64,000 nt of DNA from an uncultured Treponema sp. (GCF_946187725.1 NZ_CAMHSK010000002.1:58848-122847), one strand, 5' to 3'; positions 54,687 to 56,345 are shown, numbered from the stretch's first letter. Notes: a model not told the origin generated them from the sequence alone. A program made the numbers and translations.

Positions 54687-54715
54687 TTGACATTATCCCA
54701 TCAATTACATAAAAT
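54687..54715 (+). promoter_or_regulatory. sigma70-type promoter for the tRNA
   Basis: TTGACA (54687-54692), 17-nt spacer, TAAAAT (54710-54715), 14 nt before the tRNA 5' end. Confidence 0.55.
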
Positions 54716-54728
54716 AGATACATCTTTT

Positions 54729-54801
54729 GGGGGCATAGTCCAGCTGGTAGAACACCGGACTCATATTCCGTATGTCATAGGTTCAAGTCCTATTGCCCCT
54801 A
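54729..54801 (+). tRNA. tRNA with CAT anticodon (elongator Met, or lysidine-modified Ile2)
   Basis: Hand-folded cloverleaf: acceptor GGGGGCA/TGCCCCT, anticodon loop CTCATAT, T-arm ATAGG-TTCAAGT-CCTAT, discriminator A, no encoded CCA. It lacks the three G:C pairs of initiator tRNA. One mismatch each in the D stem and the anticodon stem. Confidence 0.8.
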
Positions 54802-55345
54802 CTTTTTAGAACCCACGCTATTTGATAGTGTGGGTTTTTCTTTTTATACGATATATTTTTTATGGACTTGAACCTACGCTTCAAGCGGTTCAGGCATAGC
54901 CTTCACCGAGACTCGTCTAAAAACTTGCCTCGCAAGTTTTTTCGCTTCGCGACCGACTCGCTACCTATTGCCCCCTGCTTACTTAAACAAACTATTTTAT
55001 AAGTCGTGGGGCTTTCTTTTGTACGGTATATTTTTTACGGACTCGAACCTACGCTTCAAGCGGTTCAGGCATAGCCTTCACCGAGACTCGTCTAAAAACT
55101 TGCCTCGCAAGTTTTTTCGCTTCGCGACCGACTCGCTACCTATTGCCCCTACCTACTTAAACAAACTATTTTATAAGTCGTGGGTTTTTCTTTTGTACGG
55201 TATATTTCCTACGGACTTGAACCTACGCTTCAAGCACAGCCCTCAGCGAGACTCCCCTAGAAACTCATCTCACGAGTTTCTTCGCCTTTGGCGACCGGTT
55301 CGCTAGGTTCTGCGCGGTTCGAGCCTAGCTCTCACCGAGAGTTAC
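54789..55345 (+). repeat. Tandem triplication of a 175-bp unit that begins inside the tRNA 3' end
   Basis: CCTATTGCCCC(T/C) occurs at 54789, 54964 and 55139, an exact 175-bp period. Units run 54789-54963, 54964-55138 and 55139-55305 (the last with an 11-bp deletion), and a partial sub-copy follows at 55306-55340. Confidence 0.9.
54811..54845 (+). terminator. Rho-independent terminator after the tRNA
   Basis: ACCCACGCTA-TTTGA-TAGTGTGGGT (one G:T pair) followed by TTTTCTTTTT. Confidence 0.8.
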
Positions 55346-55391
55346 TAACGGTACTGATTGACCAAAAATAATCTTAATTATAGAATACTTT

Positions 55392-56345
55392 ATGATTCAA
55401 GCAGAAAAATTTGACACGCCTTTTAAGGGGCGCTCTCTTCTAACATGGCTTGACTGGGAGCCGGAAGAGATTTTACAGATTCTTGATTACGCATTTCTGG
55501 TAAAAAAACAGGCTCATGCGGGTGAAGTCCACCAGCGTTTTCTGGGCAAAACAATTGCATTGATTTTTGAAAAGCGTTCCACACGCACACGCTCATCTTT
55601 TGAAACTGCCTTTGGAGAAGAAGGCGGTCATCCTGTTTTCATGTCAACGGACGACATCCAGCTCGGCGGAAAGGAAAGTGTCAAAGACACAGCACGAGTT
55701 CTGGGCCGCATGTTCAGTGCAATCGAATTCCGTGGTTTTAAACAGGAGCATGTTAAGCAGCTCGCAGAATTTTCAGGAGTTCCGGTCATCAACGGGCTCA
55801 CGGATGATTTTCATCCTACTCAGGCACTTGCAGACATAATGACACTCAAAGAGAATTTTGGAACTCTCAAAGACTTAAAATGGGCATTCTGTGGTGACGG
55901 ACGAAATAATGTTGCCCGCTCACTTATGATTATTTCAGCCAAACTCGGAATTGATTTTGCGATTTACTCACCTAAAGAACTTTTCCCGCCAGCCGACATT
56001 CAGGAAATCTGCGCTCCAATTGCAGCAAAAAGCGGCGCAAAAATTGAAATTTCTGATCAAATTTCAGTTGTAAAAGGTGCCGATTGCCTTTATACTGATG
56101 TATGGGTTTCGATGGGCGAAGAATCGCTCAAAGAAGAACGAACGCGTCTTCTTTCACCGTATCAGGTAAATTCAAAACTCATGGCAGCCACAGGCAAAAC
56201 CAGCACAATTTTCATGCATTGTCTGCCAGCTGTTCTTGGGCAGGAAGTTACCGAAGATGTTTTCGAAAGTCCTGCAAGCAAGGTGTGGGATGAAGCCGAA
56301 AACCGCAAGCATACCATCAAGGCTATTATGCTCGCTCTAATCTAG
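55392..56345 (+). CDS. argF: Ornithine carbamoyltransferase
   Basis: STRTR, HPTQ and HCLP motifs; 317 aa. I cannot separate anabolic, catabolic or putrescine specificity from the sequence alone. Confidence 0.8.
   Translation: MIQAEKFDTPFKGRSLLTWLDWEPEEILQILDYAFLVKKQAHAGEVHQRFLGKTIALIFEKRSTRTRSSFETAFGEEGGHPVFMSTDDIQLGGKESVKDTARVLGRMFSAIEFRGFKQEHVKQLAEFSGVPVINGLTDDFHPTQALADIMTLKENFGTLKDLKWAFCGDGRNNVARSLMIISAKLGIDFAIYSPKELFPPADIQEICAPIAAKSGAKIEISDQISVVKGADCLYTDVWVSMGEESLKEERTRLLSPYQVNSKLMAATGKTSTIFMHCLPAVLGQEVTEDVFESPASKVWDEAENRKHTIKAIMLALI

Follow-up and report, generated by a model that had tools for sequence, protein, structure and literature searches.

Introduction

REP/BIME sequences and REPINs are GTAG-tagged palindromic repeats that are moved by RAYT Y1 transposases (PMC3733652). 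GTAG repeats are reported from Proteobacteria, Cyanobacteria, Chloroflexi, and the PVC group, not from Treponema, and the survey of GTAG- and CGTC-tagged palindromic repeats, which also mentions the RPE, provides the nearest analogues of the element described here, including intragenic copies in repair genes (PMC3733652). In this work, we analyze a 64,000-nt stretch of DNA from an uncultured Treponema sp. (the window, whose numbering is used for all coordinates given without a contig), in which a 175-bp unit is repeated in tandem between a tRNA-Met gene and argF. Each unit contains one copy of T83, an 81-83-nt, non-coding element with three hairpins. With a probability of roughly 0.7, T83 is a DNA-level hairpin repeat that lies in a fragment of tRNA-Met, and the composite of the two has been amplified in tandem; the units would then not be three small-RNA genes.

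T83 resembles REP/BIME in being a short structured repeat that is mostly extragenic and varies highly in copy number among relatives, in the paired changes of its stems, in forming mosaics with other repeat modules, and in its occasional copies in genes, including repair genes (PMC3733652). It also has a conserved unpaired tag. The complement of T83 begins (G)GTAGGGAGC, which is near GTAG: TAGGGAG is invariant, and the preceding G that completes GTAG is present in ~66% of the copies. However, T83 has three hairpins and a junction within 81-83 nt, whereas a REP is a single palindrome of 20-40 nt. T83 dimers are head-to-tail and abutting, whereas those of REPs and REPINs are inverted, and the genome that carries the window has neither a RAYT nor another Y1 transposase.

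The RPE, reportedly described by Ogata et al. in 2000, are said to be hairpin repeats of ~100 nt that have no known transposase and that insert in frame in genes without destroying them. T83 is likewise found in frame, in recG, two ABC-F genes, and two other open reading frames (ORFs). It differs from the RPE in its unrelated lineage, its mostly intergenic location, its nesting in another repeat, and its tie to tRNA fragments; no sequence resemblance to the RPE was noticed, without comparison to an RPE library.

Hairpins also serve as insertion sites for larger elements. IS1397 and ISKpn1 insert in the loops of REPs, and IS621 and IS1111 of the IS110 family insert in REP or attC sites. T83 similarly inserts in the loop of a repeated palindrome, the hairpin H1 of the F repeat (see below), but these insertion sequences are 1-1.5 kb and encode a transposase, whereas T83 is 83 nt and non-coding, and there is no IS110-type gene here. 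The anticodon and T arms of tRNA genes are reportedly sublocations used by integrases (Williams, in 2002). Like attL and attR, the array has direct repeats of the tRNA 3′ end beside the intact gene, and T83 junctions lie at anticodon or T arms; unlike them, it has no cargo or integrase at the window locus, consists of a 175-bp tandem unit with one T83 per partial tRNA copy, and includes an inverted T-arm. Like attC, T83 keeps structure over sequence with strict Watson-Crick pairing, is likely active as a folded single strand, and has halves that reassort around a core. Unlike attC, it has no integron integrase, no R''/R' core (RYYYAAC ... GTTRRRY) in its consensus, and no cassettes, and its copies are dispersed instead of arrayed.

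T83 also differs from miniature inverted-repeat transposable elements, as its ends, GCGGTTCAGG... and ...GGCTCCCTA, are not inverted complements and the flanks of 121 copies have no constant target duplication. It differs from miniature elements derived from IS200/IS605 in having no Y1_Tnp match and in the dissimilarity of its first hairpin (P1) to the other two (P2/P3). T83 is a small structured bacterial repeat, similar to REP/BIME and RPE, that does not fit the REP-RAYT, miniature inverted-repeat, IS200/IS605-derived, or attC class.

Results

T83 is a dispersed repeat of one Treponema genus

The genome that carries the window (G000) is a 3.27-Mb assembly of 80 contigs that is 98% complete; contigs are denoted C and belong to this genome unless another is named. 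When one unit of the array is searched against this genome by BLAST, only unit positions 85-167 recur, on many contigs. The initial annotation, which had proposed that the units are three paralogous small RNAs of ~85 nt or RNAs derived from the tRNA trailer, had itself named a common dispersed repeat as a finding against that proposal. The recurring ~83-nt core is T83. BLAST and a covariance model (R1) built from the own-genome copies identify 31-32 copies on many contigs.

Of 101 genomes sampled from the genus, 42 carry T83. Its copies number from 1 to at least 45 per genome and in the hundreds for the genus as a whole, and abutting head-to-tail pairs are common. It is absent from all 148 sampled genomes of the phylum outside the genus (86 other genera). 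Hosts named by a pattern scan are rumen and gut Treponema assemblies, T. ruminis RU1, and T. saccharophilum DSM 2985, and the pattern matches outside Treponema are as many as are expected by chance for a 16-mer. A search of 50,697 phage records finds no T83, six pattern matches on viral contigs all fail the T83 model, and one weak match lies on a 424-kb replicon of T. saccharophilum. As far as sampled, T83 is restricted to one genus of rumen and gut Treponema.

Scans with Rfam 15 (including tRNA-like motifs, TD-1/TD-2, and Flavo-1), run with permissive thresholds on the locus and four further T83 copies, give no family at E = 1 on T83 or on the F repeat; at the locus only the tRNA scores. The family appears undescribed, with no match in Rfam and no description found in the literature searched.

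T83 stems change by strictly Watson-Crick pairs

The first part of T83 is P1, a 10-bp hairpin whose loop is AYA. The invariant linker GAGACTC follows, then a closing helix of 2-3 bp around P2 and P3, and finally an invariant tail, TCCCTA. P2 is a 10-bp hairpin with an A tract, a T tract, and a CTC loop, and P3 is a GC-rich hairpin of ~5 bp. Among 13 own-genome copies, both sides have changed in 19 of the 28 pairs, and 93% of the cells are paired, compared with 29-47% in slid controls. In the alignment of 90 distinct foreign copies, double changes occur in 26 of the 28 pairs, 92% of the cells are Watson-Crick, and none of 500 shuffles reaches the score. G-T and A-C cells account for only 0.6% and 1.1% of this alignment, respectively; both are scarce, indicating that neither strand of T83 is favored. 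In addition, the consensus folds as single-stranded DNA into the modeled shape (z = -5.5), and both strands of a window copy fold well. Such strictly paired changes could stem from selection on a folded single strand, or from the correction of mismatches between one arm of a DNA hairpin and the other.

P1 types recur in combination with both types of the right half, which differ from each other at several positions of the closing helix and P3. Therefore, the halves of T83 reassort. Partial copies end or begin at GAGACTC (window 55314-55341, C27, C30:29291, and C12), and these breakpoints may point to recombination or cleavage at the invariant linker.

The 175-bp unit combines T83 with a fragment of tRNA-Met

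Tandem Repeats Finder reports a 175-bp period with 2.4 copies and 92% matches at 54818-55235. The array lies between the terminator of the tRNA gene and the promoter of argF. The features of the locus, all on the plus strand where a strand is given, are as follows.

54687-54715, +, promoter-like site of the tRNA-Met gene (TTGACA-17-TAAAAT)
54729-54802, +, intact tRNA-Met(CAT) gene (ARAGORN and Rfam tRNA, 62 bits)
54789-54800, +, direct-repeat copy 1, the last 12 nt of tRNA-Met
54808-54838, +, intrinsic terminator of tRNA-Met (14-bp stem and T run)
54864-54876, +, inverted T-arm copy of unit 1 (GGACTTGAACCTA, 13/13)
54885-54965, +, T83 copy 1 (covariance model, 96.8 bits; C2:113732-113812)
54964-54974, +, tRNA-Met 3′-end copy 2 (CCTATTGCCCC), right piece of the partial tRNA copy that T83 splits
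54975-55038, decayed trailer copy after tRNA-end copy 2
55039-55051, +, inverted T-arm copy of unit 2 (12/13)
55060-55140, +, T83 copy 2, same sequence as copy 1 (C2:113907-113987)
55139-55150, +, tRNA-Met 3′-end copy 3 (12/12), followed by trailer copy 3
55213-55225, +, inverted T-arm copy of unit 3 (13/13)
55225-55307, +, T83 copy 3, of another subfamily (78.3 bits; C2:114072-114154)
55314-55341, +, left half of T83 only (P1 GCGGTTCGAGC-CTA-GCTCTCACCG and GAGAG), ending at the invariant linker
55358-55386, +, promoter-like site of argF (TTGACC-17-TAGAAT), conserved in relatives
55392-56345, +, argF, ornithine carbamoyltransferase (TIGR00658, 409 bits), the downstream neighbor

Most of what the initial annotation read directly from the array agrees with this map. 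The tRNA 3′ end (CCTATTGCCCC) recurs from 54789 at 54964 and 55139 with a spacing of exactly 175 bp, copy 2 matching at 11 of 12 positions (C for the final T). The inverted T-arm is exact in units 1 and 3, and a 13-mer match within ~600 bp is not a chance match. The P2 hairpins AAAAACTTGC-CTC-GCAAGTTTTT are located at 54919-54941 and 55094-55116, the unit-3 hairpin reads AGAAACTC..GAGTTTCT, the partial sub-copy is present, and the terminator is intact after the real tRNA only and has decayed in units 2 and 3. Unit 3 is indeed shorter, although by about 10 bp (spacing 165 versus 175) and not exactly the 11 bp given. In T83 copy 3, P1 lacks ~10 bp between the direct repeats TTCAAGC and TTCAGGC.

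Copy 1 shows all parts of the element: the P1 hairpin, the GAGACTC linker, the closing helix, the A/T-tract hairpin P2, the GC hairpin P3, and a CTCGCTA tail. Copy 3 is marked as a member of another subfamily by its P2 (AGAAACTC..) and P3 (TCGCC/GGCGA). The initial annotation had taken the paired differences between the hairpins of units 1 and 3 as compensatory changes. That argument holds for the T83 family overall, but not for change in place at this locus, where unit 3 carries a different subfamily member.

The inverted T-arm at 54864-54876 and the following TACGCTTCAAGC form a palindrome composed of the inverted T-arm, TAC, and a direct T-arm remnant. In relatives, this palindrome reads GGACTTGAACC-TAC-GGTTCAAGC (also written GGACTTGAACC-TAC-GGTTCAAGTCC). 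The inverted T-arm is one arm of the palindrome; the second is supplied by the T-arm of a partial tRNA-Met copy, and T83 splits this copy just 5′ of CCTATTGCCCCT. No promoter-like site is found inside the units, which lie behind the strong terminator of the tRNA gene.

We also considered each unit as a degenerate tRNA on the minus strand. This candidate was dropped, as ARAGORN finds none and relatives show the flanks to be tRNA-Met fragments.

The stem of the terminator after tRNA-Met (54808-54838 in the window, and the orthologous trailers in L206-L210) varies between species by paired changes as well (AACCCACGC.., CGCCCCAT.., and ACCCTCATG..), which is ordinary terminator covariation.

Unit number and T83 content differ among relatives

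Six species share a unit of 175-180 nt with the same order: tRNA 3′-end copy, trailer with terminator, inverted T-arm, TAC, GGTTC(AAGC or TGC), and T83. There is one unit in G178, G127, and G049, two in G110, three and a truncated fourth in G000, and at least three, distributed over two contigs, in G054. Three species that are more distantly related carry nrdR, tRNA-Met, the terminator, and argF, with 65-85 nt from the tRNA to argF and no T83. In G259, the palindrome GGACTTGAACC-CAT-GGTTCAATCC follows the terminator, again without T83, indicating that the inverted T-arm predates T83 or is independent of it.

Between species, the trailers at this locus are 70-89% identical and the T83 copies 59-81%, and T83 similarity is unlinked to trailer similarity. 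For G000 and G110, the values are 0.89 for the trailer and 0.59 for T83. At another site shared by these two genomes, the flanks are ~95% identical and T83 differs at a single base (~99% identical). T83 is therefore not unusually fast-mutating in place, and its differences at the tRNA-Met site come from replacement or re-insertion and not from compensation in place. The window has one T83 subfamily in units 1 and 2 and another in unit 3. Trailer copies are near-identical within each genome, which suggests ongoing homogenization.

The locus is also a hot spot of integration, as indicated by two relatives. In G054, a Phage_integrase gene starts directly after the inverted T-arm of the second unit, and in G127, ~28 kb lie between the tRNA-Met unit and argF (C1:941647-971000).

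The argF-side junction in G127 has a remnant, GGTCAGC-GCGGTCCGGC, that resembles a T-arm remnant followed by the start of T83.

T83 lies in or beside stem-loops

Four of the 28 own-genome T83 loci are within 200 nt of a tRNA gene (2.1% expected, p = 0.0026), and all eight tRNA genes in 445 kb of foreign loci are within 200 nt of T83. In the readable cases, T83 lies inside a partial copy of the very tRNA whose intact gene adjoins it (Met, Val, Leu, and Thr). The partial tRNA-Val copy is cut at the junction of the anticodon stem and loop, and in another species the D loop of a further copy is cut by a reversed T83. Upstream of tRNA-Val in G052 (L046:1375-1453), three copies of the tRNA-Val 5′ part follow one another, the third being the intact gene; the D loop of the first is split by a reversed T83 and the anticodon arm of the second by a forward T83. 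The partial tRNA-Leu copy is cut between the variable arm and the T stem, and the own-genome example has no right half. The partial tRNA-Thr copy is cut in the anticodon arm and in one case forms a tandem array of two units.

T83 is also nested in the F repeat, a GC-rich sequence of ~95 nt with three hairpins (GGGGCGTTGCGGGG-TGT-CCCCGCAGAAGGGGTAGCG, a second hairpin, then GAGGGGAAGGCTTTCCCC) that has at least 25 copies in the own genome, for example at G000 C4:48683, C8:2001, C10:54136, C41:10559, and C57:3881. T83 replaces the loop of hairpin H1 of F in both orientations (12 versus 11, among 120 unique copies), and elsewhere it replaces the second hairpin. Fourteen T83 copies abut another T83, head-to-tail. 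The orientation of T83 relative to neighboring genes is mixed, and orthologous sites with conserved flanking genes have T83 in one genome and lack it in another.

Some copies lie in genes, where the repeat DNA (F with T83, or T83 alone) is read in frame in three different reading frames and strands.

C62:3908-6250, recG with an insert of F and T83
C10:35046-37145 and C5:10422-12392, ABC-F ATPases with T83 in frame
C12:53424-55004 and C30:26574-27308, two other ORFs with T83 in frame

All copies in genes belong to the subtype without TAA or TAG after the linker. In RecG, F and T83 form a linker of 58 residues directly before the Walker A motif, compared with ~20 residues in relatives, a gain of ~38; the insert is absent from ten relatives.

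Other repeats, recombination genes, and the argF start

A third repeat family (..GGGCG..CCGC..CTTCGCTAACGCTCAT..), which T83 abuts at two loci, occurs dozens of times in relatives. Its sites include C3:28900-29010, C1:64570-64660, and G110 C58:5373-5473 (L231). At a site where G110 and G000 are otherwise 95% identical, G110 has a 101-nt member that is missing precisely from G000. Another dispersed sequence, of at least 33 nt, has ~25 copies in the own genome (k-mer GCAGGTTGACCGGACAAATTAATCAGTTATAAT). Its TTGACC ... TATAAT-like hexamers could belong to a promoter module that has been repeated, or the sequence could be the end of an insertion sequence.

The own genome has seven ordinary tyrosine recombinases, none of which is seen adjoining T83, and two matches to reverse transcriptase, one on C8 and one on C18 in an unrelated tRNA-linked island. 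This island of ~36 kb (C18:1-36036) adjoins a tRNA gene. Besides the reverse-transcriptase gene at C18:2113-2712, it contains a tyrosine integrase (C18:227-1285), and 42 nt of the tRNA 3′ part are directly repeated at C18:35995-36036.

In this clade, argF may be leaderless: its ATG at 55392 closely follows the -10 hexamer TAGAAT, whose last base is 55386, and there is no Shine-Dalgarno sequence. The more distant relatives L017 and L024 have GGAGG before the argF start and no such promoter.

Discussion

We read T83 as acting at the DNA level because G-U pairs are nearly absent, neither strand is favored, copies lie in both orientations and in frame in genes, and T83 is nested in the loops of F. 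T83 would be selfish and non-autonomous, in the manner of REP/BIME sequences or the RPE. It most likely works as a single strand of DNA folded into three hairpins around a small junction, with the invariant GAGACTC and CTCCCTA left unpaired. Its targets would lie in or beside stem-loops: the loops of F, the arms of tRNA fragments (D, anticodon, and T), and the end of a T83 already in place, the last giving rise to dimers. Insertion in an intact tRNA gene would be lethal, so that only hits in adjoining partial copies would survive.

At the tRNA-Met locus, one T83 may have landed in a partial tRNA-Met copy 3′ of the gene. The 175-bp unit can then be read as the 3′ part of a partial tRNA-Met with its trailer (T-arm remnant, CCTATTGCCCCT, and terminator remnant), placed after an inverted T-arm, plus one T83. 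Direct copies of the tRNA end and trailer on either side of T83 would allow unequal crossing-over or replication slippage, and either could have amplified the unit. What the sequences show directly is how the units are composed, that the family is dispersed, the fold with its covariation, the contexts of insertion, and the differences between species in copy number and content; the DNA-level mechanism, the role of target preference as a cause, the filter of selection, and the route of amplification are our inferences.

Several points weigh against reading T83 as a mobile DNA-level repeat. No Y1 HUH transposase (PF01797, Y1_Tnp) and no IS110-type transposase is found in the own genome, which is 98% complete, and the search there for an integron integrase (TIGR02249) gives only XerC/D-like matches below the cut-off. 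In the genus, the presence of a Y1 transposase is unrelated to T83 copy number, and two of eleven T83-rich genomes have one. Clustering of the ORFs within 400 nt of 80 foreign T83 copies gives no recurrent gene except translations of the repeats. Base-exact ends and a target duplication were not obtained, owing to intergenic divergence in close relatives, and the movement of T83 is read from differences between the sequences of species. The foreign alignment was fitted to the model and so favors the modeled pairs. The association with tRNA genes could reflect retention instead of targeting, and T83 could in addition have a role as RNA. Finally, the perfect inverted T-arm copy would be left unaccounted for by the T83 model.

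A bolder version of the DNA-level reading, which we regard as unlikely, is that T83 is the folded single-strand site of a site-specific system that attacks DNA stem-loops and exchanges strands at GAGACTC. The target would be duplicated in part, tRNA loci would collect T83-bearing fragments, and the 175-bp units would be the smallest "cassettes". If true, a stem-loop-attacking system would be a new mode of DNA mobility, one that uses none of the transposase or integrase families tested.

The initial annotation had also offered repeated recombination at an att-like core of the tRNA. In its fuller form, the array consists of att scars left by the integration and excision of integrase islands at tRNA-Met, and T83 is an attC-like folded site with its crossover at GAGACTC. 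This idea is partly borne out: the units do contain tRNA fragments, their number ranges from 0 to at least 3 in relatives, and the site has an integrase gene in G054 and a ~28-kb insert in G127. Direct repeats of a tRNA 3′ end are the classic mark of integration in a tRNA gene, and the island on C18 is another tRNA-linked example in the own genome, with an integrase and a 42-nt direct repeat. The reassortment of T83 halves, the breakage of partial copies at GAGACTC, and the keeping of structure over sequence with strict Watson-Crick pairing, as in attC, also fit. However, 24 of the 28 own-genome T83 loci are far from any tRNA or integrase, and many T83 copies lie inside another repeat or genes. 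There is no cargo between the units and no integrase at the locus within the window, and no integron integrase scores above its family cut-off. The trailers within a genome are near-identical tandem duplicates, which fit unequal crossing-over better than the ends of islands. As an account of the whole array, att scars are quite unlikely.

Very unlikely, in our view, is that T83 copies are structured small-RNA genes or cis-elements, with those near tRNA genes co-transcribed and processed with the tRNA. The very strong covariation and invariant unpaired motifs are what such an RNA would have, P2 with its A tract, stem, and T tract resembles a two-way intrinsic terminator, and T83 clusters near tRNA genes. 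Against this, the near absence of G-U pairs favors neither strand, so that the strand-specific wobble of an RNA is missing; copies stand in both orientations relative to genes, the host repeat, and the adjoining tRNA; and some are read in frame within coding genes. The units have no promoter-like site and lie behind a strong terminator, T83 matches no Rfam family, and close relatives differ widely in copy number, from 0 to at least 45. The small RNAs proposed by the initial annotation are thus unsupported, the ~83-nt core being a dispersed repeat found in either orientation.

That the tandem units are a mis-assembled repeat is hardly credible and can be set aside: metagenome assemblies often break or collapse repeats, and the G054 array is on two contigs, but units 1, 2, and 3 differ in defined segments, and orthologous arrays of the same 175-180-nt unit are found in five further assemblies, including a 2.9-Mb genome on a single contig (2,895,582 bp).

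The locus illustrates that paired substitutions in a hairpin beside a tRNA gene need not mean an RNA gene; here, they belong to a DNA repeat with strictly Watson-Crick stems. Three properties are unusual for small bacterial repeats. T83 is nested, in both orientations, in loops of another repeat; it recurs in partial tRNA copies, next to the intact genes of four different tRNAs; and its halves reassort at one invariant 7-nt linker. In practice, T83 accounts for contig breaks and for spurious ORFs in assemblies of rumen Treponema, and the cultured hosts T. ruminis and T. saccharophilum offer a place to seek the mobilizing activity. Proteins such as RecG, moreover, gain peptide segments from T83.

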